A DNA stretch of 64,000 bases from Vicinamibacterales bacterium (GTDB lineage: Bacteria; Acidobacteriota; Vicinamibacteria; Vicinamibacterales; UBA2999): contig DATLXN010000045.1 of NCBI GenBank assembly GCA_035575715.1, forward strand, positions 74,523-138,522. The letters are read 5' to 3'. Positions 1,127-55,938 of this stretch are shown here, piece by piece. Numbering within the stretch: position 1 is the first letter of the stretch; every line of letters begins with the position of its first letter. The notes below the pieces were generated by a model, which did not search any database, had not been told where the DNA came from, and saw only the letters and a program-made list of their open reading frames with translations. The translations under genes and the position numbers were made by a program.

Positions 1127-1867
1127 GTGGGACTGCGGACGCTGATTGTCGACGATGAGCAGCCGGCGCGCGAGCGGTTGCGGCAGTTACTGGCCGAGTA
1201 CGCCGACGTCGAGATCGTCGGCGAAGCTGAGGATGGCATCCAGGCCATCGAACAGGTCGCGGCGCTTTCGCCCGACGTCGTAATCCTCGATATTCAGATG
1301 CCGGCATGCAGCGGGCTGGAAGTGGCGGCGTCACTGGGACGGCCGCGACCGGCGATCGTGTTTTGCACGGCCTACGATCAGTACGCAGTCGACGCGTTCG
1401 AATTACACGCCGTCGACTATCTGCTCAAGCCGGTCAACCGCGCGCGGTTGCACGCCGCATTGCAGCGGGTGCGCGAGTTGCGCGGTGGGTCGCAGCGCGA
1501 ACACGCGCTCGACCATGCAACGCGTAGCGCCCGGTTGTCGCCATCGCGATTCCTGGCGCGCAAGGCGACGCGCTTTCGCGTCGTGCCGCGGCGGGAGGTC
1601 ATCGCCTTTACATTTCAGGACGGCTTGACGCGCCTGCACACCGCCACCGAGCAGCTGTGGATGCAACCGACGCTGGTGGCGCTGGCGCGGCGTCTCGAAG
1701 GCGACACCTTCTTTCAGGTGTCGCGGACTGCTCTGGTCAGCCTTGATGCAGTGCGTGAAGCGAAACCGTTTGCGGACGGCACCGGAGAGATCACGCTGTC
1801 CAATGGCCTGACGTTTGTGGTGACACGTCGGCGCTGGCGTTTGCTGATGGAGCGGTTAGAGCAGTAG
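1127..1867 (+). CDS. LytR/AlgR-family response regulator (receiver + LytTR DNA-binding domain)
   Basis: LIVDDE, DVVILDIQMP and DYLLKP receiver motifs. C-terminal ~100 aa LytTR-like (FLARKATRFRVVPRREVIAF...). Confidence 0.9.
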   Translation: MGLRTLIVDDEQPARERLRQLLAEYADVEIVGEAEDGIQAIEQVAALSPDVVILDIQMPACSGLEVAASLGRPRPAIVFCTAYDQYAVDAFELHAVDYLLKPVNRARLHAALQRVRELRGGSQREHALDHATRSARLSPSRFLARKATRFRVVPRREVIAFTFQDGLTRLHTATEQLWMQPTLVALARRLEGDTFFQVSRTALVSLDAVREAKPFADGTGEITLSNGLTFVVTRRRWRLLMERLEQ

Positions 1868-1929
1868 TCAGTGGTCAGTCGTCAGTGGTCAGTGGTCAGT
1901 GGTCAGTAGTCAGGCGTCAGGCGTCGGGC
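1867..1929. repeat. Tandem heptamer array (GTCAGTG-like) x9
   Basis: Read directly: gtcagtg gtcagtc gtcagtg gtcagtg gtcagtg gtcagta gtcaggc gtcaggc gtcgggc. It starts on the last base of the TAG stop at 1865..1867. Confidence 0.9.
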
Positions 1930-1999
1930 TTTTTGACGTTCCACCGTTCCCCGTTCCGTTCTTCGTTCTTTGGTCTTCTTCGTTCTACAATTCCCCACC

Positions 2000-3175
2000 A
2001 TGGCGTTTTCTCGTCGCGATTGGTTGAGCCTGGCCGCACAGGCCAGCGCAGTGGGGTTGGTCGGGCATTACACGCCGTGGGCGTCGGTGCTCGCGCAGTC
2101 GTCTCGGGCGGTGGCTGCCGGCAAAGAAAAATTGTTAGTGAAATCGCTGCGTCCGCCGGATTACGAAGCACCGGTAGCGCTGCTCGATTCCTTTATCACG
2201 CCGGTCGAACATTTCTATGTTCGCTCGCATATGCCGGTGCCACCGGCGCTCGACGCGTCAACGTGGACCCTGCAGATCGAAGGCGAGATCACCGCCGCGA
2301 CGTCGCTGACGCTCGACGAGTTGCGCAAAATGCCGGCGGTCACCGTCACGGCGATCCTCGAATGCGCCGGCAATGGTCGCGCGTTTTATGATCCGCCGGT
2401 CGCCGGCATCCAGTGGGGTAAAGGTGCGGTCGGTAATGCGCGGTGGACTGGTGTCCGCCTCGCCGATGTGTTGAAGCGAGCGGGACTCAAAGCCACCGGT
2501 AAGTTCATTCACATGAACGGCGCCGACCGCCCGCTCGGCACGATGCCCGACTTTGTCCGCCAGCTGCCGATCGACAAGGCAAGGGACCCCGACACGGTGC
2601 TGGCCTATGACATGAACGGCCAGCCGCTACACCCGCAGCACGGCTTTCCGTTGCGGGCGATTGTGCCTGGGTGGGAAGGCGCCTATTCGGTGAAGTGGCT
2701 GAACCATCTGCGTGTCGCCGATCGCGAATCGGACAGCTTCTGGGTCGCCACCGGCTATCGGTATCCGACCAAGCGCGTCGCGCCGGGTGCTGCCGTTGAT
2801 GCCAAGGACATGGCGCCACTCACTGGCCTGGTGGTTAAGTCGCTGATCACGCGCCCGCTCGAAGGCGCGACGCTGCCTCCAGGCAGAGTCGAGGTCGCCG
2901 GGTTTGCGTGGGCCGGTGAAGACGACATCGCGCGCGTTGACGTATCGACCGATCAAGGTGCGACCTGGCAGCCCGCGCGGCTGGTTGGCGAGCGCGTCAA
3001 ATATTCGTGGCGGCGCTTCGAGTTTGCCTTTGACGCGAAGCGCCCCGAGTCCTATCTGATTCTCGCCCGCGCGACAGACAGCACTGGACGAACCCAACCG
3101 ATGACGCCGCCGTGGAATCCATCCGGCTATCTGTGGAACGCGCCGGATGCGGTGCGCGTGGAGATCAAGGCGTGA
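2000..3175 (+). CDS. Sulfite-oxidase-family molybdopterin oxidoreductase (SorA-like), Tat-exported
   Basis: Twin-arginine leader MAFSRRDWLSLAAQ. HFYVRSH and ECAGNGR (Mo-ligand Cys) motifs. C-terminal dimerisation-like domain. Start set at the internal ATG 2000 rather than ORF-track 1970. Confidence 0.85.
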   Translation: MAFSRRDWLSLAAQASAVGLVGHYTPWASVLAQSSRAVAAGKEKLLVKSLRPPDYEAPVALLDSFITPVEHFYVRSHMPVPPALDASTWTLQIEGEITAATSLTLDELRKMPAVTVTAILECAGNGRAFYDPPVAGIQWGKGAVGNARWTGVRLADVLKRAGLKATGKFIHMNGADRPLGTMPDFVRQLPIDKARDPDTVLAYDMNGQPLHPQHGFPLRAIVPGWEGAYSVKWLNHLRVADRESDSFWVATGYRYPTKRVAPGAAVDAKDMAPLTGLVVKSLITRPLEGATLPPGRVEVAGFAWAGEDDIARVDVSTDQGATWQPARLVGERVKYSWRRFEFAFDAKRPESYLILARATDSTGRTQPMTPPWNPSGYLWNAPDAVRVEIKA

Positions 3176-3687
3176 GCGGCGCCGGGGCGGCGGTGCCAGT
3201 GCGCCGAGCTGCGGGGGTGCTGGTGGTCGCGCTGATCAGCGCACTCGGACTCGTCGTCAGCGGCCAGGAATTACCCGCCGGGGCGGGACGCGACGACGTC
3301 ATCAAGCGGTGCGTCAGCTGTCACGAAACGGACTTGATGACGCAGCAGCGGCTGACCCGCGCCGGATGGGGACGCACCCTCGACAAGATGGTGCGCTGGG
3401 GCGCTGTGGTCGAACCGGCCGAACGCGACGCGATGCTCGATTACCTCGCCGCGCACTTCGCCCCAACGCCCGCGGCGTCGCACCTGGTCGCGACTGCGGC
3501 TAGCGAAGCGGTCTACAAACGCGCCTGCCTGATGTGCCACGAGGCCGACATGATCGAATCGCAGCGCCTGTCGCGGGTCGGCTGGGTGCGCTCGGTCGAC
3601 AAGATGATTCGCTGGGGCGCCGACGTCCCGGCTGCCGATAAAGAAGCGCTGATCGACTATCTCGCCGCGCGTTTCCGCCCGCGCTAA
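3172..3687 (+). CDS. Di-haem cytochrome c (internally duplicated), likely electron acceptor of the upstream Mo enzyme
   Basis: Two CxxCH sites (CVSCH, CLMCH), each followed by R.GW.R..DKM.RWGA....A..DYLAA.F. GTG 3172 overlaps the upstream TGA (GTGA). A hydrophobic leader follows. Confidence 0.75.
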   Translation: MSGAGAAVPVRRAAGVLVVALISALGLVVSGQELPAGAGRDDVIKRCVSCHETDLMTQQRLTRAGWGRTLDKMVRWGAVVEPAERDAMLDYLAAHFAPTPAASHLVATAASEAVYKRACLMCHEADMIESQRLSRVGWVRSVDKMIRWGADVPAADKEALIDYLAARFRPR

Positions 3688-3742
3688 CCAACCGCTAGCG
3701 GGTCGTGACAAAAGCAGAACCGAACAATTGTTCTCTGTGGCT

Positions 3743-3766
3743 CTGCGGCTCTGTGGCGTTTCTAGC
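3743..3766. repeat. Tandem octamer array CTCTGTGG/CTCTGCGG/CTCTGTGG
   Basis: Read directly. It is immediately preceded by the perfect 12-bp palindrome GAACAATTGTTC (3732..3743). Confidence 0.75.
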
Positions 3767-3796: not shown

Positions 3797-4881
<1,085 letters not shown>

Positions 4882-4882
<1 letters not shown>

Positions 4883-6315
4883 TGATCCACATTCCCATCC
4901 TCCGCTGGGGCGTCCTTTACCGCAGCGTCGACCGTTCGATCATTCCGCACTTCCGGACCCGCGAACCGTTTGTCGAGATGAGCCAGGCCAACGTCGGCAT
5001 CATCCGCCGCGACCTGCTGCGCCAGGGCGAGCAGCGTGACAAGCTCGCCAGAGTCCCGGTCGCCGATCTCGTCGCGATGTCCAAGCAAGCGGCCGAACAC
5101 TTTCTCAACGACACATTGCCGCTCGACCCGTCGGAGTCGACGACCCAGACGCCGCAGGATTACATCGAGCAGGTCTCGGCAACGACCGGCATGCCGTATG
5201 CCAGTGTCCGCCGCAACATGCTGAAGGTGCACGGCGTCCTCAGCCGCGTCGACGAAGTCCTCGACGGACTCACGCGCGGACTCGATTTGTCAGTGCTGGA
5301 CGATGGCTATGGCGAGGCCGGCGGACAGATGCTCAGTTTTTTCGCGCGCGGCGATTCGCTCGGCGTCGTCTTGCCCAGCAACTCGCCGGGCGTGCATTCG
5401 CTCTGGGCGCCGGCCACGGTGCTGAAGATGCCGCTGGTGCTGAAGCCTGGCAGCGCCGAGCCGTGGACGCCGCTGCGGATGATTCACGCGTGGAGCAAAG
5501 CCGGCGCGCCGTCGGAAGCGTTTGCCTACTATCCCGCCGATCATGCCGGCGGCCACGAGATCCTCCGCTCGTCCGGTCGTGGCATGGTCTTCGGTGATGT
5601 CGGTTCGACCAAGCGCTGGAAGGCGGATCCGCGCGTCGAAGTGCACGGGCCTGGTTTCAGTAAGGTGGTGATCGGCCCCGATGTCGCGGACGACTGGGAA
5701 CGGCATCTCGATGTGATCGTCGAGTCGATCTCTAACAACGGCGGCCGCTCGTGCGTCAACGCGTCGGGCGTGTGGGTGACCAGGCACGGCGATAAGATCG
5801 CCGCGGCGCTGGCCGAGCGGCTGGCGCAGATTACGCCGCGAGAGGCCGATGACCCCGACGCCGTGCTGGCACCATTTGCCGACCCGTCGACGGCGCAACG
5901 CATCTCCGCGACCATCGACCAGGACCTGCGCGGCGAAGCAGGCGCAGCGCGCGATGTGTCGGCCGAACAGCGCGGGCCGGATCGCGTCGTCACGGTCAAC
6001 GGCGGTAGCTACTTGCTGCCGACCGTGATCCGCTGCGACGCCTCGCACCCGCTGGCCAATCGCGAATATCTCTTCCCCTACGCGAGCGTCGTCGAGGTGG
6101 CAGCCGAGCAACTGCCCGCCGCACTCGGGCCATCGCTGGTGGTCACCGTCGTGTCGAACGACGAGCGCTTCCGTGAACGCTTCGTCGCGTCGCCCCACGT
6201 CGATCGCCTGAACCTCGGGCCGATCTCGACGACCCAGATCGGGTGGGACCAGCCGCATGAAGGCAATCTGTTCGAGCACCTCTATGCGCGGCGAGCGATT
6301 CAAAGGCTGGCCTGA
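4882..6315 (+). CDS. Aldehyde-dehydrogenase-superfamily protein (possibly LuxC-like acyl reductase)
   Basis: VVLPSNSPG...LKPGS (NAD(P) site region), GPGFSKVVI and NNGGRSCVNASGVWV (catalytic-Cys region). ATG 4882 overlaps the upstream TGA (TGATG). GAGGGAG lies 8 nt upstream. Confidence 0.75.
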
Positions 6316-6328
6316 GTTGCGGTACGGG

Positions 6329-6386
6329 CCGCAGAGACACCGGGACGCAGAGGATTATTTTTCTCTGTGCCTCTGTGACTCTGTGG
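6329..6386. repeat. Octamer family CTCTGTGN x3 (6363..6386) with two inverted copies (CCGCAGAG 6329, ACGCAGAG 6345) giving an imperfect long hairpin
   Basis: Read directly. The T-rich loop is gattattttt. It lies between the ALDH stop (6315) and the GT start. Confidence 0.65.
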
Positions 6387-6402
6387 CTTGTCCGTGGATG
6401 CG

Positions 6403-7704: not shown

Positions 7705-8350
7705 GACCTACCCGTCGCCAGGGGGGCCGTTGACGGTCCTCGACAAGGTTGCTTTTGCTCTGCAGGCCGGGGAAGCGGCGGCGATCATGGGGCCCTCGGG
7801 ATCGGGTAAGAGCTCACTGCTCTATGTTGTCGGCGGCCTCGAACCGCCGACCAGTGGGGTGGTCACTCTCGCGGGCCAGGACCCCTATGCACTCGCCCCT
7901 GACGCGCTCGCCGCGTTCCGCAATCAGCAGGTCGGATTCGTCTTTCAGGACCACTGCCTGCTCCCGCAGTGCACGGTTCTCGAAAACGTGCTGGTCCCGA
8001 CCCTGGTCGGAACCGCGGATGCGTCGGCGCGCGATCGCGCGCGCCAGTTGCTGGATCATGTCGGGCTGTCGGCCCGACTCGACCACCGGCCGGCAGCTTT
8101 GTCAGGTGGCGAGAAACAACGCGTCGCGATCGCGCGTGCGCTGATTCGCCAGCCGCGACTACTGCTCTGCGACGAACCGACCGGCAACCTCGATGCGGAT
8201 TCCGCCGGCCGCGTCGCCGAACTTCTCCTGACGCTTCACGAGACGCAGCAGACCGTGCTGCTGGTGGTGACGCACAGCGAAGTATTGGCCGCGCGGTTTG
8301 CCAGACGCTGGACGATCACCCGCGGCGCATTGACCGACGTGACGACATGA
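7679..8350 (+). CDS. ABC transporter ATP-binding protein (MacB/LolD/FtsE-like)
   Basis: Walker A GPSGSGKS, signature LSGGEKQRVAIARAL, Walker B LLLCDEPTGNLD. It overlaps the GT 3' end by 26 nt. Confidence 0.9.
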   Translation: MLSAQQLTKTYPSPGGPLTVLDKVAFALQAGEAAAIMGPSGSGKSSLLYVVGGLEPPTSGVVTLAGQDPYALAPDALAAFRNQQVGFVFQDHCLLPQCTVLENVLVPTLVGTADASARDRARQLLDHVGLSARLDHRPAALSGGEKQRVAIARALIRQPRLLLCDEPTGNLDADSAGRVAELLLTLHETQQTVLLVVTHSEVLAARFARRWTITRGALTDVTT

Positions 8351-11300
8351 ATGGTCTGGTCGCGGCAAGCTTGCGGCATTTTCGCGCACTCCATGCGCTG
8401 GTCATCTGCGGGATCGCCATTGCCGTGGCCGTTCTGGCGGGCGCACTTCTGGTCGGCGCGTCGGTCCGTGGCAGCTTGCGGGATCTGGCACTGGCGCGTC
8501 TCGGCGCCACCGAACTGGTCGCGACATCGCCGACCTTTTTCCGCGACGCGCTCGCACAGGAGCTCACCGGCGGCGACATCCAGGCCGTCGCGCCGCTCGT
8601 CGCGATGACTGGCACGGTCACGCATGACGACTCCGGCCGCATCGCCAGCCACGTCCAGGTGTTCGGCATCGACGATCGTTTCCTTGCGTTTCACGGTCGC
8701 CCCGCCGGTGCACCAAGCAGTCGCGACTCGTGGATCAGTCCAGCCCTCGCCACCGAACTGGGGGCCGATGCCGATGACAACGTGATGCTGCGAATCGCCA
8801 AGCCGAGTGATGTGCCGCTCAGCACCTTGCAGGGCCGGCGGGAGGACGTCAGCGAGCGGGTGCGCTTGACCGTCGGCCGTGTCGTCGATCGCGCCGCACT
8901 TGGCGAGTTTTCACTGCTCCCGAGCCAGGGGCCGGCGCTGACGATGTTCGTGGCGCTGTCACGACTGCAGCAGGACCTGGATGCTGAGGGCCGCGTCAAC
9001 GTGCTGTTGCTGCGGATGGCGGCGCCGGCAGCGGATCCCCGGGACGACCTGCGGGCCGCACAAGAGGCGTTGAGCCGCCGCGCGACTCTGGATGATCTGG
9101 GACTCAAAGTGCGTCGCGATGGGCGCGGTGCCACGGTGATCCTCGAGAGTCGGAGCGGCCTGCTGCCGGATTCCGCTGTCGCCTCGGCCGTCCACGCCGC
9201 GACACAGATCGGCCGCCCGGCGACGGGTGTCCTGACCTACCTGGCGAATGCGATCCGCGCCAACGGTCGCGAGATCCCGTACTCGCTCATCGCCGCCATC
9301 GATTTGCCCGGCCCCCCTTTGGGGACGGAGGTCGGCGTCAGGGCTCCCTCGGGGACGGAGGTCGGCGAGGAATCGCCCGTTTCCCCCAGCAGGGGGACGG
9401 AGGTCGGGGTCAGGGTCCCGGTGGGGACGGAGGTCGGGGCCGGGGGGGGCGAACGACCTATTTTGCTCAACGCCTGGGCCGCCGAGGACCTCGGGGTCAC
9501 CGCCGGCGATCGCATCGACGTCGACTACTTTCTGTGGACCGACAGCGCCGGATTGCAGACGCGCAGCACGTCCTTCACTTACGCGGGGGTCGTGCCCATG
9601 ACGGGCCCGGGCGGCGACGCCACCCTGACCCCCGAGTACCCAGGAATCACCGACGCGGCTGACGTGACCAACTGGGACCCGCCGTTTCCTGTCGACATGC
9701 GCCGGGTGCGCAAGACCGACGAGGACTACTGGGATACCTGGCGCGCGGCACCGAAGGCGTTCATTCCGCTCGCCGTCGGACAGCAACTATGGGCCAGCCC
9801 GTTCGGCAAGCTGTCCTCGCTGCGCACCCACGCGACCGAGGCATGGCCCGCCGCCGGTGCGTTTGATATTGCCTCGCTGCTGCCGATCCGGCCGGTCCGC
9901 GCCGAAGCCATGGCCGCCGCTGCCGGCACCACCGACTTCGGCGAGTACTTCGTCTACTTCAGTTTCTTTCTGGTGGTGTCGGCATTGCTGCTGGCCGGCA
10001 TGTTCTTCGCGCTCACTGTCGAACAGCGGGCCAGGGAGCTCGGCCTGCTCATCGCGGTCGGCTTCACGCCGCGCGATGTCAGGCGTACGCTGCTGCGCGA
10101 AGCAGCGGTATTGATCACCATTGGCAGCACGCTCGGGGTCGCCGGCGCGATTGGTTACGCGGCGCTGATTGTTTACGGGCTGGGGACGTGGTGGGTCGGC
10201 GCGGTCGGCACCACGGCGCTGCGCGTCCACATCGATCCGATGCTCCTCGGTGCGGGTGTGCTCGGCGCCGCCCTTGCTGCCGCGATCGCCTTGACGCTCT
10301 CCATGCGGCGGCTCGCCAAGCGGACGACGCGCGCGCTGTTGACCGCCGGCTTCGAGTCGTCGCACGAGGCATCGCCCCGCGTCAGCCGTCGCATTGCCGC
10401 CGCTGCGCTCGCCTTGTCACTACTGTTGATGGCGCTGGCCGGCAGTGGCATGGCCAGCCAGGTCGCGGCATTTTTTGGCGCCGGGGCGTTGCTGCTGGTC
10501 GCAGGGTGCGCCGTCTTTGCAGCATGGCTACGCAGCCGGGCGGCACCAACAGAACAGCCGTCGATGATCCGCTTCGGCGCCGCATATGCGCGCTGGCGGC
10601 CGGCACGGAGCGTCTTGTCGACCGCGCTGATCGCGTTTGCCTGTTTCGTGATCGTGTCGGTCGGCGCGTTTCGTCGCGACCCCGCCGCCGAGCAGCTCAC
10701 GCGTGACGGCGGCACCGGCGGATTCCTGTTGATGGGCGAATCGGTTGCACCGCTCCTGCACAACCCGAACACGCCGGGTGGACGCGACGAACTCCTGCTC
10801 GGTGGCTACCCGCTGCTCGAACAGACATCGATTGCCCGATGGCGTCTGCGCCCCGGCGACGAGGCGAGTTGTTTGACCCTGTACCAGCCGGCCAATCCGC
10901 GTATCGTGGCGCCGGAGGACGCTTTCCTGCAGCAAGGCCGCTTCAGCTTCGCCGGTTCGGTGGCCGAGACACCCGAGGAACGCGCCAACCCATGGCTGCT
11001 CCTCAATCGGCAGTTTGCTGATGGTGCGGTCGCCGCGATTGCCGATCAAACCTCACTGACCTACGTCTTTCATCTCAAGGTCGGCGACGACCTGGTGTTG
11101 CCGGCCGACAACGGCCCGCCGATCCGGTTGCGCATCGTCGCAACGCTCGCCGACAGCGTGCTGCAATCCGAGTTGATTATTGGCGAAGGGCCGTTCATAC
11201 GGTTGTTTCCCCATCACGAAGGCTATCGCCTGTGGCTGATCGAAGGGCCGGAGGCGCAGGCACCGGCCTTGACCGCCTTGCTCGAGGACAGCCTCAGCGA

Positions 11301-11742
11301 CTTCGGCATGGACATCGTCGATACGCGCGCGCGCTTGGCGGCATATCACCAGGTCGAGAACACCTATCTCTCGACGTTCCAATCGCTCGGCGCCCTCGGA
11401 CTGCTGCTCGGGACGCTGGGCCTCGCCGCGGTCCTTGCGCGCAATGTGCTCGAACGCCGGCGAGAATTGGGGCTGCTCGGAGCGGTTGGTTTCACCAACC
11501 GTCACCTGCGCACGATGATCGCCAGCGAAAGCATTTTGCTAGTTGCGACGGGGTTGGTCATCGGGAGCGCCGCGGCTATCCTGGCAGTGGCGCCGGCGGT
11601 CATCCAGCGCAGTAATGCATTGCCCTGGGCAAGTCTCGCGCTGCTGTTGCTGGCGGTCTTGATCACCGGCGTCCTGGCATCTCTCGCCGCAGTGCGTTTG
11701 GCCACCGCGACACCGGTGGTTGCTGCGATCAAGGGGGAGTAA
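8347..11742 (+). CDS. Large ABC transporter permease with two FtsX-type membrane modules
   Basis: ATG 8347 overlaps the ATPase stop (ATGA). N-terminal TM (ALVICGIAIAVAVLAG). Two FtsX-like 3-4 TM blocks, near aa 520-650 and at the C-terminus. The ORF-track start 7969 is rejected because it is an Arg/Pro-rich read-through of the ATPase gene. Confidence 0.85.
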   Translation: MNGLVAASLRHFRALHALVICGIAIAVAVLAGALLVGASVRGSLRDLALARLGATELVATSPTFFRDALAQELTGGDIQAVAPLVAMTGTVTHDDSGRIASHVQVFGIDDRFLAFHGRPAGAPSSRDSWISPALATELGADADDNVMLRIAKPSDVPLSTLQGRREDVSERVRLTVGRVVDRAALGEFSLLPSQGPALTMFVALSRLQQDLDAEGRVNVLLLRMAAPAADPRDDLRAAQEALSRRATLDDLGLKVRRDGRGATVILESRSGLLPDSAVASAVHAATQIGRPATGVLTYLANAIRANGREIPYSLIAAIDLPGPPLGTEVGVRAPSGTEVGEESPVSPSRGTEVGVRVPVGTEVGAGGGERPILLNAWAAEDLGVTAGDRIDVDYFLWTDSAGLQTRSTSFTYAGVVPMTGPGGDATLTPEYPGITDAADVTNWDPPFPVDMRRVRKTDEDYWDTWRAAPKAFIPLAVGQQLWASPFGKLSSLRTHATEAWPAAGAFDIASLLPIRPVRAEAMAAAAGTTDFGEYFVYFSFFLVVSALLLAGMFFALTVEQRARELGLLIAVGFTPRDVRRTLLREAAVLITIGSTLGVAGAIGYAALIVYGLGTWWVGAVGTTALRVHIDPMLLGAGVLGAALAAAIALTLSMRRLAKRTTRALLTAGFESSHEASPRVSRRIAAAALALSLLLMALAGSGMASQVAAFFGAGALLLVAGCAVFAAWLRSRAAPTEQPSMIRFGAAYARWRPARSVLSTALIAFACFVIVSVGAFRRDPAAEQLTRDGGTGGFLLMGESVAPLLHNPNTPGGRDELLLGGYPLLEQTSIARWRLRPGDEASCLTLYQPANPRIVAPEDAFLQQGRFSFAGSVAETPEERANPWLLLNRQFADGAVAAIADQTSLTYVFHLKVGDDLVLPADNGPPIRLRIVATLADSVLQSELIIGEGPFIRLFPHHEGYRLWLIEGPEAQAPALTALLEDSLSDFGMDIVDTRARLAAYHQVENTYLSTFQSLGALGLLLGTLGLAAVLARNVLERRRELGLLGAVGFTNRHLRTMIASESILLVATGLVIGSAAAILAVAPAVIQRSNALPWASLALLLLAVLITGVLASLAAVRLATATPVVAAIKGE
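9321..9437 (+). repeat. Four in-frame copies of GGGGACGGAGGTCGG (peptide GTEVG) inside the permease gene
   Basis: Copies at 9321, 9351, 9393 and 9423 (spacing 30/42/30 nt). Translation: GTEVGVRAPSGTEVGEESPVSPSRGTEVGVRVPVGTEVGAGGG. Confidence 0.85.
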
Positions 11743-11770
11743 GTGCTGAGTGCTAAGTGCTAAGTGTCAA
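11743..11770. repeat. Tandem heptamer array GTGCTGA/GTGCTAA/GTGCTAA/GTGTCAA
   Basis: Begins 1 nt after the TAA 11740..11742. It fills the spacer up to the convergent stop at 11774. Confidence 0.8.
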
Positions 11771-15045: not shown

Positions 15046-16314
15046 ATGCGCAAGGCCGCTTTTTCTCTGATCGTCACCGTCATCGCCTCCGCCGCGCTGT
15101 CAGCCAACTGGCCGGCGTGGCGCGGGCCGTCGGGCGACGGCGTCAGCAGCGAAAAGAACCTCCCCGTCAAGTGGAGCCCCACCGAGAACATCGCGTGGAA
15201 GCTGGCGTTACCACAGTGGAGCGGCGCGACGCCGGTCATCTGGGGCAACACCGTCTTCCTCAACGTCGCGGAAGCGGATGGCGATCAGTTGTCGCTGTGG
15301 GCAGTCAGCCGAACCAATGGCGACATCCTGTGGAAGAAGCTCCTCAGCACCGGCAACAACAAGCAACGCAAGCAGAACATGTCCTCGCCCTCACCGGTCA
15401 CCGATGGCACGACGGTGTGGGTGGTGACCGGTACCGGCATCCTCAAAGCGTTCGATTTCAAGGGCGCAGAGTTGTGGACGCGCGACATCCAGAAGGATTA
15501 CGGGCGCTTCGGCCTGAACTGGGGCTACGCCAACTCGCCGCTGCTGCACGACGGGGATTTGTTCGTGCCGGTGCTGCACGGCATGAAGACCGACGACCCG
15601 TCGTACATGCTGCGCATCGACGGCAAGAGCGGCAAGACGGAGTGGAAAGTCGAGCGGCCGAACACCGCCATTCGCGAGTCGCCGGACGCCTACATCACCC
15701 CTGCGCTCGCCCGCGTCGGCAAGGGCTTCGAAATCATTCTCAATGGCGCCGATGTGGTCACTGGTCACGATCCGGCGACAGGCAAAGAACTCTGGCGCGC
15801 CAACGGCCTCAATCCCGACAACGATCCGTCTTACCGTATCGTCGCCTCGCCGGTCACATTTGGCGATATCGTCATTGCGCCGACGCGGGAGCGGCCGATG
15901 CTGGTGCTGACCGCCGGTGGACGAGGCGACGTTACGACATCGCACAAGCTGTGGTCGTTCCAGAATGGCCCGGACGTGCCGACGCCAGTTACCGACGGCA
16001 CGTATGTCTACGTCGTCAACGATCGCGGCATCGCGTATTGTCTCGAGTTGAAAACCGGTAAACCGGTGTACGGCCCGGAACGCCTGGAGCCGGGCACCTA
16101 CAGCGCCTCGCCGGTGTTAGCCGACGGCAAGATCTACATCACCAACGAAGATGGCGTTGCGTCGGTCTATCGCGCGGGGCCAACGTTCGAGCTGCTGGCC
16201 GAGAACAAGATGGATGACTACACGCTCAGCTCGATCGCGGTGAAGGAGGGGCAACTCTTTCTGCGCACCGCCGGGTGGTTGTGGGTGATCGGTCAGCGGA
16301 AGGCCGCGCATTAA
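15046..16314 (+). CDS. PQQ-like beta-propeller repeat protein, secreted
   Basis: Signal peptide. NWPAWRGP..G motif. Repeated W...G/A.P blades, the same family as 50514, 62389 and 63519. Confidence 0.85.
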
Positions 16315-16360
16315 TCGATTCGAAAGTCATCGCTGTCGAACTGCATTCTCGCATTCGCCA

Positions 16361-16384
16361 CAGAGACACAGAGACACAGCGATT
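16361..16384. repeat. Octamer array CAGAGACA x2 plus a degenerate unit (complement of the CTCTGTGN family)
   Basis: Read directly (cagagaca cagagaca cagcgatt), in the spacer after stop 16314. Confidence 0.55.
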
Positions 16385-16892: not shown

Positions 16893-16894
16893 TC

Positions 16895-16942
16895 GCCCAC
16901 CGGCCCACCGGCCCACCCGCCTACTCGCCTACCCGCCTACCC
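16895..16942. repeat. Tandem octamer array GCCCACCG x2, GCCCACCC, GCCTACTC, GCCTACCC x2
   Basis: Read directly. It lies between convergent stops 16858 and 16950. Confidence 0.85.
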
Positions 16943-16949
16943 GCCCGTT

Positions 16950-40021: not shown

Positions 40022-40049
40022 ATCAGGGATCAGGGATCAGGCATCAGAA
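40022..40049. repeat. Tandem heptamer array ATCAGGG x2, ATCAGGC, ATCAGAA
   Basis: Starts 1 nt after TAA 40019..40021. It runs into the convergent stop at 40044..40046. Confidence 0.85.
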
Positions 40050-41150
40050 AATGCGTCTGGCTTTGAGCGTGGCGGTCGGGCTGAAGGTCGCGATGATCTC
40101 GAAGCGATGTTCGTTCGGGATCGGGTAATTCGTCCTGAACGCTTCGCCTTGAAACCAGCCGACTGAGAAGTCGCGCGTCAGCGCGAAGTTGCCTGACGTA
40201 TAAAAGCGTGTTCCACGCTCGTAGCGGTCGGCGTTCAAACTCATGTAGCCGGGAGCCAGGTAATTCCGATCGATGTGTGCGACGCCGCCGGTGACCGTGA
40301 GCCGCGGCCCGAGTCGCGCGTCGACCGCGACGTTAATACCCTGGCCTGGGGTGCCTGACACTCGCTGGTAGGCGTCGACCTTCAGTCCGGTCATCCACGG
40401 AATGCTGCGAGGCGTGCGCCACGTAAATCCCTGGCGCAGGATGTCGCGTCCGTCCTCATAGGTATAGTCCGCCGACACATTGACCTTGGTCCCCAGCCGT
40501 GCGCCGATCAGCACCTGACCGTAGTTGAATTGATCGAGGCGCTTGAAGCGCCTGAACACATTCGGGATGCGGTAGTCGCCGATGTACCCGGCCGTTGCGA
40601 CGACCTGCGACACCAGACCGGTTGGCCGTCGCAGCGTGACGCGCTCGCCGACGATGTAGGCATCGTTGTCGTAGCTGGTGACTTCGGTGCTTTCGCCGCG
40701 GGTTAGATAGAGGCCGCCGAATTGCACTTCGAGGTCCTTGACCGGTTCCGCCGCGACGAACAATTGTTTGACGTTGAAGTCGCGCGCGAACAAGCCCAGT
40801 CCGCCACCGCTGTTGTTCCAGCCAGCCACAAACTGGCTGCCGCCAAACGCCCCGACATTGACGCTGTAGCGCCCGGCGCGATCGAACAACAGGCGCGCGC
40901 GTAGCTGCGGCTGCCACTGGTGGGTGCTCGACGTGATCCGCCCGCTGTCGGATTCGATCCAGCGAAAGCGCGACGACAGATGCACGTGCTGAAGATCGAC
41001 CCAGCGGCGAATTGCCGGGGACGGTTCAGCAGGCGCCGGTTGAGCCGGAGGTATTGGGGACGGAGGTGTTGGGGGTGGAGGTGTTTGGGCCAGCGCGGCC
41101 CCGCCGTACAGATTGACCAACAGGAGCGAAATCAGCGCCGCACGAGTCAC
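40044..41150 (-). CDS. Outer-membrane beta-barrel (porin-like) protein
   Basis: Signal peptide, Pro-rich linker, alternating-strand pattern, terminal ...LKARRIF. Confidence 0.65.
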   Translation of the reverse strand: MTRAALISLLLVNLYGGAALAQTPPPPTPPSPIPPAQPAPAEPSPAIRRWVDLQHVHLSSRFRWIESDSGRITSSTHQWQPQLRARLLFDRAGRYSVNVGAFGGSQFVAGWNNSGGGLGLFARDFNVKQLFVAAEPVKDLEVQFGGLYLTRGESTEVTSYDNDAYIVGERVTLRRPTGLVSQVVATAGYIGDYRIPNVFRRFKRLDQFNYGQVLIGARLGTKVNVSADYTYEDGRDILRQGFTWRTPRSIPWMTGLKVDAYQRVSGTPGQGINVAVDARLGPRLTVTGGVAHIDRNYLAPGYMSLNADRYERGTRFYTSGNFALTRDFSVGWFQGEAFRTNYPIPNEHRFEIIATFSPTATLKARRIF

Positions 41151-44478: not shown

Positions 44479-44487
44479 TCCGTATTG

Positions 44488-45867
44488 ATGGCCACTTCGA
44501 CCCCTCCAACCGACAACATCCTCGGCACGATCGGTGACACGCCGTTGGTGCGGATCAATCGCATCACGCACGGCATTGTCGCCGCCGATGTGTTTGCCAA
44601 AATCGAAACATTCAACCCGGGAAACTCGATCAAGGACCGGATGGCCTTGAAGATGATTGAGGATGCCGAGCGCAGCGGCAAGCTGAAGCCGGGCGGCACG
44701 ATCATCGAAGGCACCTCCGGCAACACCGGGATGGGCCTGGCCATGGCCGCGGTGGTCAAAGGCTACAAGTGCATCTTCACGACGACTGACAAACAGTCCA
44801 AGGAGAAGGTCGACGCACTGAAGGCGTTTGGCGCCGAAGTCATCGTCTGTCCCACCGACGTTGAACCCGAAGATCCGCGGTCGTATTACTCGGTGTCCTC
44901 GCGCCTCGAGCGCGACACGCCGAACTCGTGGAAGGCCAACCAGTACGACAACTTGTCGAACCGTCAGGCGCACTACGAGCAGACCGGACCGGAACTGTGG
45001 GAACAGACGGGCGGTCGCATCGATCACCTCGTGTCAGGCGTCGGCACCGGCGGGACGATTTGCGGTGTCGGCAGGTACTTAAAGGAACGCAAGCCGAAGA
45101 TCAAAATATGGGGGATCGACACCTACGGGTCGGTGTTCAAGAAATACAAAGAGACCGGCGTCTTCGACAAGAACGAGATCTATCCCTACATCACCGAAGG
45201 GATCGGCGAAGACTTCCTGCCCCAGAACGTCGACTTCTCGGTTATTGATGCGTTCGAAAAAGTGACCGACAAGGATGCGGCGGTGATGACCCGGCGGATC
45301 ACGCGAGAAGAAGGAATCTTTGCCGGCAATTCAGCCGGCGCCGCCCTGGCCGGCTTGCTGCAGTTAGCGCCGCACTTCACAGCCGGCCAGACCGTCGTGG
45401 TGATTTTTCACGACCATGGCACCCGATACCTTGGCAAGATGTTCAACGACGACTGGATGCGCGAGAAGGGTTTTCTGTCGCCAGAGGGTCTGACCGCGCG
45501 TGACCTGGTGGCCAACAAGAAGACGTCGCCGATGGTGACCATCGATTGCGCCGAGACGGTCGCCGAGGCCGCGCGCCTGATGACCCAGCACGGGTTCTCC
45601 CAAGTGCCGGTGACTTCAAACGGCCGCATCGTGGGATCAGTCAGCGAGACGCGGCTCTACTCAGAGATCGTCAAGAGTCCCGAAGTCAAGCGCGGTCCGG
45701 TTGAAGCGATCATGGGCGCGGCGTTTCCGTTTGCCGACGTGTCCACCAATATCGATGCCCTGGCGACGATGTTGACACCGGAAAATCCCGCCGTCCTGGT
45801 GCGCGACTTCAAGAGCGATGAGACCTACATCATCACCCGCTCAGACGTGATCCAGGCGCTCAGCTAG
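44488..45867 (+). CDS. Cystathionine beta-synthase-like PLP enzyme (CysK/CysM fold + C-terminal CBS pair)
   Basis: GDTPLVRINR, NPGNSIKDRMA (PLP Lys), GTSGNTG, GTGGTI. The C-terminal ~120 aa show a CBS-domain pattern. Confidence 0.85.
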   Translation: MATSTPPTDNILGTIGDTPLVRINRITHGIVAADVFAKIETFNPGNSIKDRMALKMIEDAERSGKLKPGGTIIEGTSGNTGMGLAMAAVVKGYKCIFTTTDKQSKEKVDALKAFGAEVIVCPTDVEPEDPRSYYSVSSRLERDTPNSWKANQYDNLSNRQAHYEQTGPELWEQTGGRIDHLVSGVGTGGTICGVGRYLKERKPKIKIWGIDTYGSVFKKYKETGVFDKNEIYPYITEGIGEDFLPQNVDFSVIDAFEKVTDKDAAVMTRRITREEGIFAGNSAGAALAGLLQLAPHFTAGQTVVVIFHDHGTRYLGKMFNDDWMREKGFLSPEGLTARDLVANKKTSPMVTIDCAETVAEAARLMTQHGFSQVPVTSNGRIVGSVSETRLYSEIVKSPEVKRGPVEAIMGAAFPFADVSTNIDALATMLTPENPAVLVRDFKSDETYIITRSDVIQALS

Positions 45868-45914
45868 ACGCCCTCGGCCGCAAGTTAACTAGACGCCCTC
45901 GGCCGCAAGTTAAG
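45865..45914. repeat. Tandem duplication, 2 x 25 bp (TAGACGCCCTCGGCCGCAAGTTAA[C/G])
   Basis: 24/25 identical. Copy 1 begins with the TAG stop of the upstream gene. Copy 2 ends 8 nt before ATG 45923. Confidence 0.9.
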
Positions 45915-45922
45915 ATGCCTTC

Positions 45923-46930
45923 ATGCGTAAGCTGATGTATCTGGTTCTCTGCCTCGCTGGTGCCGTCTCTGCGGGTGCGCAACAACCCCGGACCCATCGG
46001 CTCGAGGCGACGCCGTCGACGGTCGCGTACGGCTACTACTGGTCCGACGCCAAACCGATTTTACGTATCGCCTCAGGCGATATCCTCGACGTCGATACGC
46101 TGCTGACGTCGACGCCCGATCGGCTCGAGAAGGCGGGTGTGCCCGCTGCACAAGTGCAGGCGTCGCTGCGCGCGATTGTTGAACAGGTCACCGATCGCGG
46201 ACCTGGCGGACACATCCTGACCGGTCCGGTGTATGTCGAAGGCGCCGAGCCCGGCGACGCGCTCGAGGTACGGGTGTTGTCGATCGAGCTGCCGATCGAT
46301 TACGGCTACAACGGGTGCAGCGGCTTCATTCGTGAAAACTGCACGCCGGGCGCGGCGATGCGGATCATCCGGATGGACCGGCAGCGCATGATCGGGCACT
46401 TTGCTCCCGGCATTGAAATCCCGCTGCGGCCATTCTTCGGCAGCATGGGGGTGGCGCCGCCGCCGGCGCGTGGGCGGGTCAGCAGCAATCCGCCGGATAT
46501 TCACGCCGGCAATCTCGATAACAAGGAGCTGGTCGCCGGCACCACTCTATGGATTCCAGTCCACGTCGCTGGTGCGTTGTTCGAGATCGGCGACGGCCAC
46601 GCGGCCCAGGGCGATGGCGAAGTCGACCAAACCGCGATCGAAACCTCGCTGCGCGGGCGCGTGCAATTGACAGTGCGTAAAGGCATGACCTTGACCTGGC
46701 CGCGTGCCGAGACCGCGACGCACTACATCAGCATGGGCACCGACGTGGACCTCACCAAGGCAACACGAATTGCGATTCAGGAAATGATCGACTTCCTGGC
46801 GGCAACCAAGAAGCTCGATAAACATGCCGCCTACCAACTGACCAGCATTGCCGGCGACGTGGCGATCACACAACTGGTCGACGGCACGATGGGCGTGCAC
46901 GTCAAGATGCCGAAAGCGATCTTCAAATGA
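45923..46930 (+). CDS. Acetamidase/formamidase-family amidase, secreted
   Basis: LTGPVYVEGAEPGDALEV motif typical of the FmdA/AmdA family. Signal peptide. Confidence 0.75.
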   Translation: MRKLMYLVLCLAGAVSAGAQQPRTHRLEATPSTVAYGYYWSDAKPILRIASGDILDVDTLLTSTPDRLEKAGVPAAQVQASLRAIVEQVTDRGPGGHILTGPVYVEGAEPGDALEVRVLSIELPIDYGYNGCSGFIRENCTPGAAMRIIRMDRQRMIGHFAPGIEIPLRPFFGSMGVAPPPARGRVSSNPPDIHAGNLDNKELVAGTTLWIPVHVAGALFEIGDGHAAQGDGEVDQTAIETSLRGRVQLTVRKGMTLTWPRAETATHYISMGTDVDLTKATRIAIQEMIDFLAATKKLDKHAAYQLTSIAGDVAITQLVDGTMGVHVKMPKAIFK

Positions 46931-51915: not shown

Positions 51916-52443
51916 TTATTCGGTGGTGCGCGTGCCGGCTTCGACCGGCATTCCCGGCATCCGTCCGGTCGAAAGTTCCTGGTCGATCATCAACAGGCCG
52001 ATGCCGCTGTTGCCAGCCAGCCGGATGCGCCCACCCACGGCGCGCGCGGCCGCTTCTTCTTCCATCTGTTCGGTGACAAACCACTGCAGCATCACCGTCG
52101 CGGGACGATCCTTGGTCTTCTCGGCGATCGCGTAGAGGTTGTTGATCGAGGCGGTGACGTCTTGTTCGTTTTTCAACACGTGATCGGTCAGCGCTTCGGC
52201 AGAGGGCCATCCGCTCGGCGGCGCACCCACTGCAGGCAGCACCACTTTCTGATCACGCTCAATCAGGTGATCGATGATCCGCTGGGCGTGCATCAACTCG
52301 TCAGACGACTGCTTGCGCATCCATTTGGAGAAACCCGGCAGATCGTGCTCGGCCAGCCATATCGACATCGCCAGATATTCGTGTGACGCACGGAACTCGA
52401 GCTTGAGATGCTCGTTGAGACCATTCAGCAGATCGCTATTCAT
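51916..52443 (-). CDS. ftn: Bacterial non-haem ferritin
   Basis: LNEHLKLEFRASHEYLAMS...DELMHAQRIIDHL shows the ferroxidase-centre pattern. 175 aa. Confidence 0.9.
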   Translation of the reverse strand: MNSDLLNGLNEHLKLEFRASHEYLAMSIWLAEHDLPGFSKWMRKQSSDELMHAQRIIDHLIERDQKVVLPAVGAPPSGWPSAEALTDHVLKNEQDVTASINNLYAIAEKTKDRPATVMLQWFVTEQMEEEAAARAVGGRIRLAGNSGIGLLMIDQELSTGRMPGMPVEAGTRTTE

Positions 52444-52477
52444 ATATCCACAGATTACGCTGATTACGCGGCTTTAT

Positions 52478-52498
52478 GCACCCGGCACCCGGCACCGG
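52478..52498. repeat. Tandem heptamer array GCACCCG x2, GCACCGG
   Basis: 4 nt from the stop at 52503..52505 (minus-strand gene). The GATTACGC direct repeat at 52453 and 52462 lies next to it. Confidence 0.75.
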
Positions 52499-54478: not shown

Positions 54479-54483
54479 TACGT

Positions 54484-54518
54484 TTCGTCTTTCGTCTTTC
54501 GTCTTTCGTCTTTCGTCT
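54484..54518. repeat. Tandem heptamer array TTCGTCT x5 (perfect)
   Basis: Occupies most of the 44-bp spacer between the SDR stop (54523) and the cupin start (54478) on the minus strand. Confidence 0.9.
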
Positions 54519-54522
54519 TTCT

Positions 54523-55311
54523 CTACAGCGCATTCCCCGCGCCACCGTCGACGGTGATCGCCTGACCGGTGATGTAGCTCGCCGCATCCGATGCGAGAAA
54601 CGCGACCAGGTTCGCCAGTTCCTCGGGCCGCCCGATCCGTCCGAGCGGCACGCTCGCCGCAGATGCGCGCTTCACCTCGTCGAGCGGCGCGCCACTCTTC
54701 TCGGCGTTGGCGCGGTCCAGTTCGTCAATGCGTTCGGTTTGAATGCGGCCAGGAGCGACGACATTCACCAGGATGTTATCCGCCGCAAGTTCGCGCGACA
54801 GCGTCTTGGCCAACCCCCACACGCCGGCGCGCAAGGCGTTGGACAACACCAGATTGGGAATCGGTTGCCTGATCGACGACGACGCAATCGTGACAATGCG
54901 GCCGCCGCCGGCTCGCTTCAGCTCGGGGACAGCGGCATGCACGATCCGAACAAAGCTAAGCACGTTCTGCTCGAACGCTTTCTGCCACTGGGCTTCGGAC
55001 ATCGCCGCGAACTCGCCGGCCGGCGGTCCGCCAGCGTTGTGAACCACGATGTCGAGGCCGCCCATCTGCTTGACCGAGCTGTCGACGAGCTGACGCGCTT
55101 CGTGTTCGCCACTGACGTCGGCAGCGACCGCAAACACCTTGGTTTTGGTTTCACCAGCGATCGCCTGCGCAGCCGCGTCGATTCGTGCCCGGTCGCGGCT
55201 GCAGATGACCAGATCGCATCCCTCCCGGGCGAGGGCGAGGGCCGAGGCGTAGCCGAGGCCGCGACTGGCGGCCATGACGATGGCGCGCTTGCCTGTGAGT
55301 CCGAGATTCAT
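54523..55311 (-). CDS. Short-chain dehydrogenase/reductase
   Basis: TGKRAIVMAASRGLG cofactor motif. NAGG. The S...Y...K region is present. 262 aa. Confidence 0.9.
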   Translation of the reverse strand: MNLGLTGKRAIVMAASRGLGYASALALAREGCDLVICSRDRARIDAAAQAIAGETKTKVFAVAADVSGEHEARQLVDSSVKQMGGLDIVVHNAGGPPAGEFAAMSEAQWQKAFEQNVLSFVRIVHAAVPELKRAGGGRIVTIASSSIRQPIPNLVLSNALRAGVWGLAKTLSRELAADNILVNVVAPGRIQTERIDELDRANAEKSGAPLDEVKRASAASVPLGRIGRPEELANLVAFLASDAASYITGQAITVDGGAGNAL

Positions 55312-55322
55312 GCCGCTCGATC

Positions 55323-55914
55323 TTACTGCTTCGCTCTCGGCTTGGCCGCTTCGCGTTTGGTGACACGGTGGATCACCGGCTTTTGATCGCGAAGAAATGC
55401 GTAAAGCGCCGACAAGTCTTCCCGCGTCATGCCGCCCAGTTGTTCCACGGCATCACCGTATTCGACGCACGCTGGTTCGCCGGCAGCACACGATCGGGGA
55501 CCCGCTCCCACACCTTGAACCGCTGGATGAACTGCGCCTCAGTCCATGTCCCGATGCCGGTGTCCGCATCTGGCGCGATATTCGGCGCGCGCACGATGCC
55601 GCCCTCGGGGAATCGGAACTCCATGCCGCCGGCGTAATCCATCCCCGGCTGCGGCGCGCCCTTATCGTCGCGTGTGGCGTGACACTCGGCGCACCCGGCC
55701 ATGCGCGCCAGGTAGCCGCCGCAACCAGCCGGTCACTCGGATCGGGCGCCGGCATCAGGTGCGCAGGCTGCGGCATGGTCCGCACCATGATCTGCATCGG
55801 GAAATGAAATGACCGATCGGGGACCTCATCAAGGTGCGGCTTGAGTGTCCGAATGTCCGCCACCAACGCATCGACGAGGGTCAGTATGCAAACGCCGACG
55901 ATCAGTCGTTTCAT
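55323..55914 (-). pseudogene. Mono-haem cytochrome c, tandem paralog of the C-terminal half of 55938..56909, with two 1-nt deletions
   Basis: Three ORF pieces align in order to the neighbour: MKRLIV...PSDRLVA | GGYLARMAGCAECHATRDDKG...MPWNNWA | GMTREDLSALYAFLRDQKPVIHRV. Frame breaks fall near 55715..55723 and 55431..55436, both in GCGGCGGC-type runs. Confidence 0.7.
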
Positions 55915-55917
55915 GCA

Positions 55918-55938
55918 TCGTCGGTCGTCGGTCGTCGT
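55918..55938. repeat. Tandem heptamer array TCGTCGG x2, TCGTCGT
   Basis: Ends on the first base of the stop at 55938..55940 (minus-strand gene). It fills the spacer up to start 55914. Confidence 0.75.

Follow-up and report, generated by a model that had tools for sequence, protein, structure and literature searches.

Why do spacers between ordinary bacterial genes contain head-to-tail copies of a sequence of only seven or eight nucleotides, and why do these arrays so often begin at a stop codon? The question is raised by a stretch of 64,000 nt, here called the window, which is part of a contig from a Vicinamibacterales (Acidobacteriota) metagenome-assembled genome (MAG) of a soil bacterium. 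The preference of tandem repeats for a 7-nt unit has reportedly been an open question since the description of the STRR sequences in 1990 and a survey of simple sequence repeats (SSRs) in 2007. A first-pass annotation of the window had listed ten arrays with periods of 7 or 8 nt, and all of them were recovered in our analysis. They are real, biased in period and in position, polymorphic by whole units, and the spacers in which they lie are made of them. We consider it probable that the arrays are heptamer and octamer SSRs of the bacterial long SSR class, which resembles variable-number tandem repeats (VNTRs), and that they are driven by slippage and survive only in harmless DNA after stop codons.

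The arrays of the window

The arrays were detected with Tandem Repeats Finder (TRF) and by direct reading of the sequence. Coordinates, strands and units are as follows.

Array 1, 1862..1925, plus strand: about nine units (CAGTGGT/GTCAGTG), the last units reading CAGGCGT
Two extra period-7 arrays in the spacer of array 1, 1937-1957 and 1957-1978, plus strand: (CGTTCCN)x3 and (CGTTCTT)x3, respectively
Array 2, 3733..3757, plus strand: (CTCTGTGG)x3.1, 46 nt past the stop (3687) of a SorB-like cytochrome gene
Hairpin-array element, 6325..6393, plus strand: includes array 3, (CTCTGTGN)x3 at 6363-6386
Array 4, 11740..11766, plus strand: (TAAGTGC)x3.9, the first unit containing the stop TAA of gene 8347-11742
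Array 5, 16359..16379, plus strand: (CACAGAGA)x2.6, between genes 15046-16314 and 16409-16858
Array 6, 16894..16946, minus strand: (GCCCACCG/GCCTACCC)x6.6, between a terminator-like hairpin (16866-16893) and a stop at 16950
Array 7, 40022..40047, no strand assigned: (ATCAGGG)x3.7, fills a 22-nt convergent gap with stops at 40021 and 40044
Array 8, 52478..52496, minus strand: (GCACCCG)x2.7, 6 nt past the stop at 52503, upstream of ferritin gene 51916-52443
Array 9, 54483..54521, minus strand: (TTTCGTC)x5.6, GAAAGAC in gene sense, begins 1 nt past the stop (54523) of a short-chain dehydrogenase (SDR) gene
Array 10, 55918..55937, minus strand: (TCGTCGG)x2.9, directly after the stop (55938) of a cytochrome c gene

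Two positions had to be revised. The first-pass annotation had recognized array 1 correctly but placed it at 1867..1929, while it starts at 1862 and its first unit, CAGTAGT, provides the LytTR response-regulator gene 1127-1867 with its final codon and its stop TAG. Array 2 had been put at 3743..3766, which is 10 nt off.

Perfect runs, i.e., at least 11 matches at lag p with the same threshold for every period, were counted and compared with a second-order Markov model of the window as the null. Six runs were found at period 7 and three at period 8, with no more than one at any other period and about 0.04 expected per period. The earlier claim of a bias toward periods 7 and 8 is borne out by these counts and also by those for the wider lineage given below. 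Twelve of the 14 period-7/8 arrays (eight of period 7 and four of period 8) are non-coding, although non-coding DNA makes up just 9.5% of the window (P = 4e-11). Nine of them reside in co-directional and three in convergent spacers, while the nine divergent spacers contain none. At five confirmed stops (1865-1867, 11740-11742, 40019-40021, 54523-54525 and 55938-55940) the edge of an array is at most 1 nt away or overlaps the codon. The previously stated number of six arrays within 5 nt of a stop is correct and compares with 3.8 for random placement of the ten arrays within their own spacers (P = 0.03). Array 6 ends 3 nt from the stop of a minus-strand gene for a TonB-dependent receptor (16950), and array 8 is 6 nt away from the stop at 52503. 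About three to four units are present in seven of the ten arrays.

The window stems from a MAG, and chance similarity or an assembly artefact therefore had to be weighed. Contigs assembled from short reads indeed break within arrays 1, 7 and 9, which leaves exact copy numbers uncertain: the k-mer-based Logan contigs L081, L082 and L083 (SRR7741809) end about 30 nt into these arrays, respectively. Heptamer arrays thus fragment assemblies with k=31, and copy numbers in MAGs are to be treated as uncertain. However, the arrays were found in two independent assemblies, Logan SRR7741809 and ENA ERZ27252406, and are consequently not an assembly artefact. Arrays 8 and 10 are identical in Logan contigs L086 and L083, respectively. 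In addition, the same class of array occurs at 160 other loci, among them the complete long-read chromosomes L015 and L061, and the perfect runs outnumber the chance expectation by far. We regard the likelihood that the pattern is spurious as practically negligible. In practical terms, the arrays break short-read assemblies and at the same time offer ready-made VNTR markers for uncultured soil Acidobacteria.

The genes flanking the arrays are ordinary housekeeping genes. They encode a LytTR response regulator, sulfite dehydrogenase SorAB, a GT4 glycosyltransferase, an ADOP-type permease, a TonB-dependent receptor, an FAD oxidoreductase, ferritin, a lytic transglycosylase, an SDR and cytochrome c. 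The 73-aa gene with the stop at 52503, which precedes array 8, was also called in an independent assembly. Array 8 is adjoined at 52447-52470, in the spacer that precedes the ferritin gene, by a 9-nt direct duplication, GCGTAATCA GCGTAATC. The best genome matches of the window are MAGs of Vicinamibacterales and other Acidobacteriota. With the exception of the source MAG, the lytic transglycosylase (SLT) protein has no match above 81% identity, and only one other sample (L085) contains an identical flanking protein.

The pattern across Acidobacteriota

The set of relatives comprises the window and 80 acidobacterial loci (1.3 Mb) that were fetched around a conserved neighbour gene and analyzed with TRF. 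A second, independent set consists of 80 metagenome loci around another gene of the window, 72 of which were counted. Genes in the relatives were called with a crude, purpose-made caller, whereas tblastn served to anchor the key junctions. Note that the titles of some GTDB/ENA MAG records that carry the acidobacterial gene cluster (L003, L009, L022, L025 and L035) read Bifidobacteriaceae, Heliomicrobium or Heliobacteriaceae, probably as a result of labelling errors.

In the 80 other genomes, 118 non-coding arrays have period 7, followed by 35 with period 9, 34 with period 8, 20 with period 10 and eight with period 6, while periods 4 and 5 are not represented. Repeats within genes mostly have periods of 6, 9 and 12. 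Perfect runs are even more concentrated, with 46 at period 7 and no more than six at any other period. Non-coding period-7/8 arrays reach a density of 1.9 per 10 kb in the window, 1.5 in Blastocatellia/Pyrinomonadaceae and 1.1 in Vicinamibacteria, as opposed to 0.11 in Terriglobia/Bryobacterales. Terriglobia, with an array density about ten times lower, are an internal negative control.

The positional bias is equally evident in the pooled data. Divergent spacers hold only six of the 142 spacer arrays from the window and the 80 genomes, but account for 26% of spacer length (P = 1e-11). An enrichment next to stops in relatives, for which the first-pass annotation had proposed a check, was indeed present: 44 of the 142 arrays are separated from a stop codon by at most 5 nt, compared with 14.7 +/- 3.1 for random placement and a maximum of 28 in 2000 trials. 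The metagenome set replicates this finding. Here, an array was located downstream of the stop in 11 of the 72 loci, and it started no more than 5 nt from the stop in seven of these 11.

Arrays create the spacers in which they lie

The gene order gA (3797-4882), gB (4879-6315), gC, gD, gE is conserved across the phylum, and the same junction can thus be compared in genomes with and without an array. Between gA and gB, the median gap amounts to 3 nt in the 36 genomes that lack an array, mostly in the form of a TGATG stop/start overlap as in the window, and to 107 nt in the 25 genomes that have one. Between gB and gC, the gap is about -13 to +14 nt where arrays are lacking and amounts to about 119 nt where they are present. 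It is at this second junction that the hairpin with array 3 is situated, while the close relative L003 has a gap of 6 nt there. The arrays had originally been described as filling short spacers. Orthologous junctions, where array-free gaps measure -4 to +7 nt, contradict this description: since array-free junctions overlap or abut while array-bearing gaps are around 100 nt long, arrays create spacers instead of filling them.

Within the inserted DNA, the first array typically follows straight after TGA, TAA or TAG and the inverted array terminates 3-10 nt short of the ATG. The lengths of the gaps are continuous (-4, 0, 6, 20, 34, 58 ... 282 nt), which fits growth and not the insertion of a fixed element. 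Neither fixed ends nor target-site duplications were found at 25 independently inspected junctions. Where the ancestral junction measured about 0-10 nt, anything that grows there necessarily begins at the stop codon. The stop-adjacent start therefore follows from geometry, and a mechanism that senses stop codons is not needed. Of the generating mechanism or period-reading factor that had been invoked in the first place, a generating or reading process specific for the period persists as the best description of what is not explained. The statement that several arrays span a whole gap holds for arrays 4 and 7, both between convergent genes. Array 4 fills the 31-nt convergent gap to a stop at 11774. 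For array 10 the statement is doubtful, because the independent assembly yielded no call for the open reading frame (ORF) at 55453-55914.

The gA/gB junction (at about 9.9-10.0 kb in L001-L080; 4879-4882 in the window) is a hot spot, with a heptamer or hairpin array in 25 of 61 genomes. The arrays occupy the gap from the stop onward except for the last 3-10 nt in front of the ATG, and no obvious Shine-Dalgarno sequence is left. Many of their units are variants of GATTGCG, with both arms co-varying between genomes. Nested elements are present in the gA-gB spacers of L017 (9836-9990), L065 (9799-10000) and L058, in which heptamer-array arms on the outside surround a second inverted repeat. The inner palindromes of L065 (gtccgac-gaactttagtttgtcg) and L058 (gtccgat-atgctttagcttgtcg) are not tandem and are similar without being identical. 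They may constitute a separate small mobile element.

Acidobacteriota thus provide a useful test bed, since dozens of genomes allow one and the same conserved operon junction to be seen both with an array and without it, and Terriglobia are nearly free of arrays. This series of junctions, together with the contrast to Terriglobia, makes the 7-nt question tractable: the generating factor, the preference for four units and the polarity described below can be tested.

Changes by whole units and a possible local origin

A comparison of copy numbers between strains had also been proposed in the first-pass annotation, and arrays 5, 6 and 7 do differ by whole units. L085 represents a related strain that encodes an identical 149-aa protein with 98.4% nucleotide identity in the coding sequence. 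Compared with the window, array 5 is longer by one unit in this strain and array 6 is shorter by two (four units rather than six). In Logan contig L082, which is derived from the same organism, array 7 has one additional ATCAGGG unit, and the contig ends inside the array. Whole-unit differences between nearly identical sequences point to growth and shrinkage by whole units, i.e., to slippage.

Array 1 offers a hint as to how an array may arise. It ends in GTCAGGCGTCAGGCGTC-GGGCTTTTT. In the orthologous spacer of L003, GGTCAGGCGTC-TTTTT follows right after the stop and forms the left arm of a terminator-like palindrome. The gene ends with GGC TGA in the relatives and with CAG TAG in the window, the latter being an array unit. 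Judged from these sequences, array 1 would fit growth from a local seed, in the course of which the last codon and the stop were overwritten.

The mechanism that we propose has few components. Slipped-strand mispairing would add and remove whole units, and an array would, at least sometimes, have a local seed or small hairpin as its starting point. Its persistence would be restricted to places where a frame-breaking insert of variable length is harmless, so that selection would act as a positional filter. The tolerated place would extend from the stop codon to the next functional element, be it a terminator, a ribosome-binding site or a start codon, between co-directional or convergent genes. 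In compact genomes with ancestral junctions of about -4 to +10 nt, a growing array would itself become the spacer and would begin at the stop or overwrite it.

Preferred length, unit re-use and transcription polarity

Slippage combined with a positional filter does not account for everything, and a number of observations weigh against it as the full explanation. The peak at period 7 is sharp, with almost no arrays at periods 4, 5, 10 and 11. Array length does not decay monotonically. Instead, pooled non-coding period-7 arrays most often have four units (n=53; three units, n=35; five, n=15; six or more, n=8), and the length of heptamer arrays has its mode at 31-33 nt (about 4.5 units), followed by a sharp drop. 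Octamer arrays have their mode at 24-25 nt, and both values apply whatever the sequence of the unit. About 63% of the arrays in relatives possess an inverted partner, the arms being about 90% complementary although the units vary between genomes. The same units reappear in different genomes (45 identical cross-locus pairs versus 5.2 expected), and a single unit can occupy several spacers of one genome, as does CTCTGTGN with three occurrences in the window and TTGGGAG with seven in L067 (21 kb). Arrays adjacent to a stop are richer in G than in C in the sense of the preceding gene in 33 cases and poorer in nine (P = 0.0003). Co-directional hairpin arrays have a G-rich 5' arm in 23 cases and a C-rich one in four (17 and four when gA-gB orthologs are left out). 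A limit of the evidence is that the stop adjacency in the window taken alone is only marginally significant.

The 7-nt preference, the mode of about four units, the re-use of units and the polarity are not explained by slippage plus filter, and this is what keeps two other interpretations, functional elements and a dispersed family, alive. Preference, mode and G-rich-in-sense polarity are real, are confined to certain lineages, and point to some property of the apparatus for replication or repair that acts together with a constraint linked to transcription. The polarity in particular is real: in array-free 3' flanks, G exceeds C in 270 and falls below it in 232 cases, and the difference from stop-adjacent arrays is significant (Fisher P = 0.002). 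A purely neutral process at the DNA level that is blind to the direction of transcription would not be expected to generate it.

Polarity of this kind would be accommodated if the arrays were functional elements of 3' untranslated regions or operon junctions, acting on RNA or on DNA during transcription and including hairpins formed by two inverted arrays. Such elements could keep the RNA after the stop rich in G and poor in C so that Rho cannot load inside operons, they could form stabilizing or terminating structures, or they could be the target of a single-strand-binding protein that covers about 7 nt, for instance one with a cold-shock domain. In the case of CspB, each heptamer of a repeat is bound by one protein (PMC4679880). 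The preference for a length of around 31-33 nt independent of the unit also argues for a function, as do hairpin arrays that extend exactly from stop to start in conserved operons and would bring the two codons together at the base of the stem. The related repeats of Xanthomonas are mostly transcribed, and transcript starts and stops within them exceed those in controls, but a function was not found there (PMC4692102).

Structure speaks for a function in one case and against it in most others. The units had been described as not self-complementary and the arrays, accordingly, as not being hairpin terminators, and this is right for most of them: eight of the ten array spacers in the window fold no better than shuffled sequences; array 4, for example, is unstructured (z = 0.24). 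The spacer of array 2 folds weakly better than shuffles (z = -1.9). Array 3 is not unstructured; it is one arm of a strong hairpin and the only case of inverted pairing in the window. The hairpin at 6325-6393 begins 9 nt past the stop at 6315 and reaches as far as the glycosyltransferase start (6388/6394). It consists of a 5' arm (CCGCAGAG ACACCGGG ACGCAGAG), which is a degenerate CNCAGAG array, the loop ATTATTTTT and array 3 as the 3' arm. Its folding energy is -45 kcal/mol (z = -7.4), a value matched by none of 200 shuffles, and it is stronger on the sense strand owing to G-U pairs (-41.2 kcal/mol for the plus and -29.4 kcal/mol for the minus strand). In L002, another member of the Vicinamibacterales, an 8-mer hairpin array resides upstream of gA at 8747-8798 ((GTTCCAGG)x3 / (GAACTTTG)x3). 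Its arms likewise allow G-U pairing on the sense strand only.

Across the window and the relatives, 64 of 147 arrays form clear and 28 form partial inverted pairs (array, unique loop, reverse-complement array), none of these being window arrays. For these hairpin arrays as a group, no preference for one strand emerged. Minimum free energy favours the sense strand in 12 and the antisense strand in 13 cases, and selection for RNA hairpins in the sense orientation was rejected on this basis. Wobble pairing in the arms is also unbiased, with 23 G-U pairs in sense and 19 in antisense beside 40 transversions; 770 of 852 positions are complementary. Units within a single genome are very diverse and a CTCTGTG family occurs in both orientations, which makes a single sequence-specific reader unlikely. 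The presence of an array at a given junction varies among related genomes, its length varies between strains, and an Rfam scan yielded no matches (nor did a tRNA scan find any tRNAs). On balance we hold a function to be conceivable but unlikely.

The recurrence of units raises a different possibility, namely that the arrays are a dispersed, mobile or copy-pasted family, comparable to STRR, REP/REPIN or foldback elements with tandem-repeat inverted ends, whose members reached gene junctions by transposition or recombination and varied in length later. According to the first-pass annotation, each array had its own, unrelated unit. This is contradicted by the octamer CTCTGTGN, which arrays 2, 3 and 5 have in common, array 5 on the opposite strand (six matches of the dimer versus 0.35 expected), and by the excess of identical units across loci. 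Further support comes from insertions at junctions with an ancestral gap of zero, from the nested hairpin-array elements in L017, L065 and L058 and from a patchy distribution among lineages resembling that of TAACTGA repeats (PMC4679880). Moreover, of the heptamers repeated in Nostoc spacers (ccactga, ctactga, attgcga and ttgtcag; PMC2408588), which coincide with units found here and in relatives, the first three are identical to acidobacterial units: the window unit GTCAGTG is the reverse complement of CCACTGA, and ATTGCGA and CTACTGA occur in acidobacterial loci. On the other hand, fixed termini and target-site duplications are missing at the 25 junctions, gap lengths are continuous, and the sites are set by gene boundaries, no matter whether the stop is TGA, TAA or TAG, instead of a target sequence. 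Array 1 apparently originated from local sequence, and most units of the window have no second locus within the 64 kb. A transposase or RAYT gene was not seen beside the arrays, although no systematic search was performed. We judge an origin by dispersal to be quite improbable.

A bolder proposal, which is speculative and to which we give little credence, would unite period, length and polarity. In Blastocatellia, Vicinamibacteria, Nostocales and Xanthomonas, but not in Terriglobia, a dedicated machinery with a 7-nt register might place elements controlled in length to around 31 nt, with the G-rich arm leading, in the stop-to-start intervals of genes that are transcribed together. The arrays would then be transcription-oriented operon punctuation and not slippage debris, and may act, e.g., by excluding Rho or by translational coupling across the stem.

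Several more specific roles were considered and discarded. The arrays do not represent classical terminators, because a scan for intrinsic terminators (hairpin plus U-run) gave a background result (10 found, 13.9 expected) and most arrays are unstructured. A device that provides stops in all three frames was rejected as well, since a sense stop is contained in 24 of 97 units compared with 31.6 expected, i.e., without enrichment. Nor do the arrays resemble phase-variable contingency loci, in which an SSR in the promoter or the 5' coding part of a surface or virulence gene switches its expression: they are all situated 3' of genes, never in divergent spacers, and their neighbours are housekeeping genes. 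Repeats that form G-quadruplexes, a subclass treated by Rehm et al. in 2015, have at least four G-tracts of at least three G. In the window only array 6 has at least four GGG tracts (on the minus strand, where the array is G-rich in the sense of the TonB-dependent receptor gene); array 7 has two to three, and the other units are devoid of G-tracts. As most units lack G-tracts, the four-unit mode is not a G-quadruplex effect here. The preference for four units that was reported for G-rich repeats thus does not need G-quadruplexes.

Comparison with known repeat systems

Having weighed these possibilities, we return to the arrays as probable slippage-driven SSRs. They are an instance, in a new lineage, of a published repeat class. 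Like heptameric and other long-unit SSRs, they contain tandem copies beyond chance, are dominated by period 7, avoid coding regions and divergent spacers, lie close to stops, vary in unit number and comprise about four units. The STRR heptamers of heterocystous cyanobacteria, reportedly described by Mazel et al. in 1990 (cited in PMC4692102), are tandem and intergenic, with units dispersed about 100 times per genome. They and the heptamers of Nostoc spacers share with the acidobacterial arrays the intergenic tandem arrangement and some units that are identical or nearly so. Within the 64-kb window, only CTCTGTGN recurs, at three loci, while one unit can occupy up to seven spacers in relatives (L067).

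The first-pass annotation was unaware of any description of the pattern. The same features have, however, been reported for GGGAATC repeats in Xanthomonas and GGGGA(C/T)T repeats in Nostoc PCC 7120 by Rehm et al. 2015 (PMC4692102). In two xanthomonads, 89-93% of these repeats are intergenic, mostly between aligned ORFs and only in 7-9% between divergent ones. They show a strong bias to positions within 50 bp of a stop codon or overlapping it, and downstream of ORFs the coding strand tends to be the G-rich one. Four units are clearly favoured, and 70-75 inverted pairs exist per Xanthomonas genome. The repeats vary in length and sequence between close relatives, and their neighbours are housekeeping genes (PMC4692102). 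The acidobacterial arrays have much in common with them: intergenic 7-nt units, a bias to aligned ORFs, rarity in divergent spacers, stop adjacency, a G-rich sense strand, about four units, length variation, housekeeping neighbours and, in the relatives, many inverted pairs. They differ in that one unit dominates each genome in the study by Rehm et al., while at least eight different units, 8-mers included, were present in 64 kb here. In addition, most units lack G-tracts, the hosts are Acidobacteriota, and inverted pairing occurs once in the window. Our literature search found no description of such heptamer repeats in Acidobacteria.

In the survey by Mrazek et al. 2007, as summarized in PMC4679880, heptanucleotides are the most abundant long SSRs in most repeat-rich genomes. 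According to the same summary, the authors suggested that the polymerase may contact DNA over a length of 7 nt, which would combine footprint and slippage. Long SSRs with units of 5-11 nt and the arrays studied here agree in that heptamers are the commonest type, the phylogenetic distribution is patchy and units that are not multiples of three are kept out of genes. Acidobacteria are not among the repeat-rich taxa named in that summary, which also makes no mention of stop adjacency or of spacers made by arrays.

TAACTGA direct repeats were described by MacGregor 2015 for marine Beggiatoaceae, some Cyanobacteria and Bacteroidetes (PMC4679880). They too are intergenic tandem heptamers (two to six copies), some of which overlap the upstream stop, canonical ribosome-binding sites are often absent beside them, and repeat-free relatives have shorter spacers. 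In contrast to the diverse units reported here, which relate to the upstream stop, they consist of a single unit that is oriented to and located just upstream of the downstream start. REP units are palindromes of 20-40 nt that are mobilized by RAYT transposases. REP, BIME and REPIN elements of proteobacteria resemble the arrays in their location downstream of genes and inside operons and in their capacity to form hairpins, which applies to the hairpin arrays of relatives and to the window element at 6325-6393. The arms in Acidobacteriota, however, are tandem 7/8-mers of variable sequence and number, and most window arrays are not palindromic. Membership in the REP/BIME/REPIN group was rejected because the units are not palindromic; a search for a RAYT gene was not made.

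Further repeats in the window

Three repeats with longer periods were encountered in addition. A perfect tandem duplication of 25 bp (CTAGACGCCCTCGGCCGCAAGTTAA x2) at 45864-45913 begins within the stop TAG that terminates gene 44485-45867, and 9 nt separate its end from the ATG of gene 45923-46930. This duplication occupies a stop/start junction in the same way as the heptamer arrays, with a longer period. A period-18 repeat (CCCGCAGGGGCCTCTCGA x3.7) is present at 22116-22180 in a region of about 1.5 kb (21490-23010) without confident gene call, and has no Rfam match. The third, a period-15 repeat (CGGAGGTGTTGGGGA x2.9) at 41046-41089, lies either close to where the minus-strand ORF 40044-41150 begins or in the divergent spacer of this ORF.

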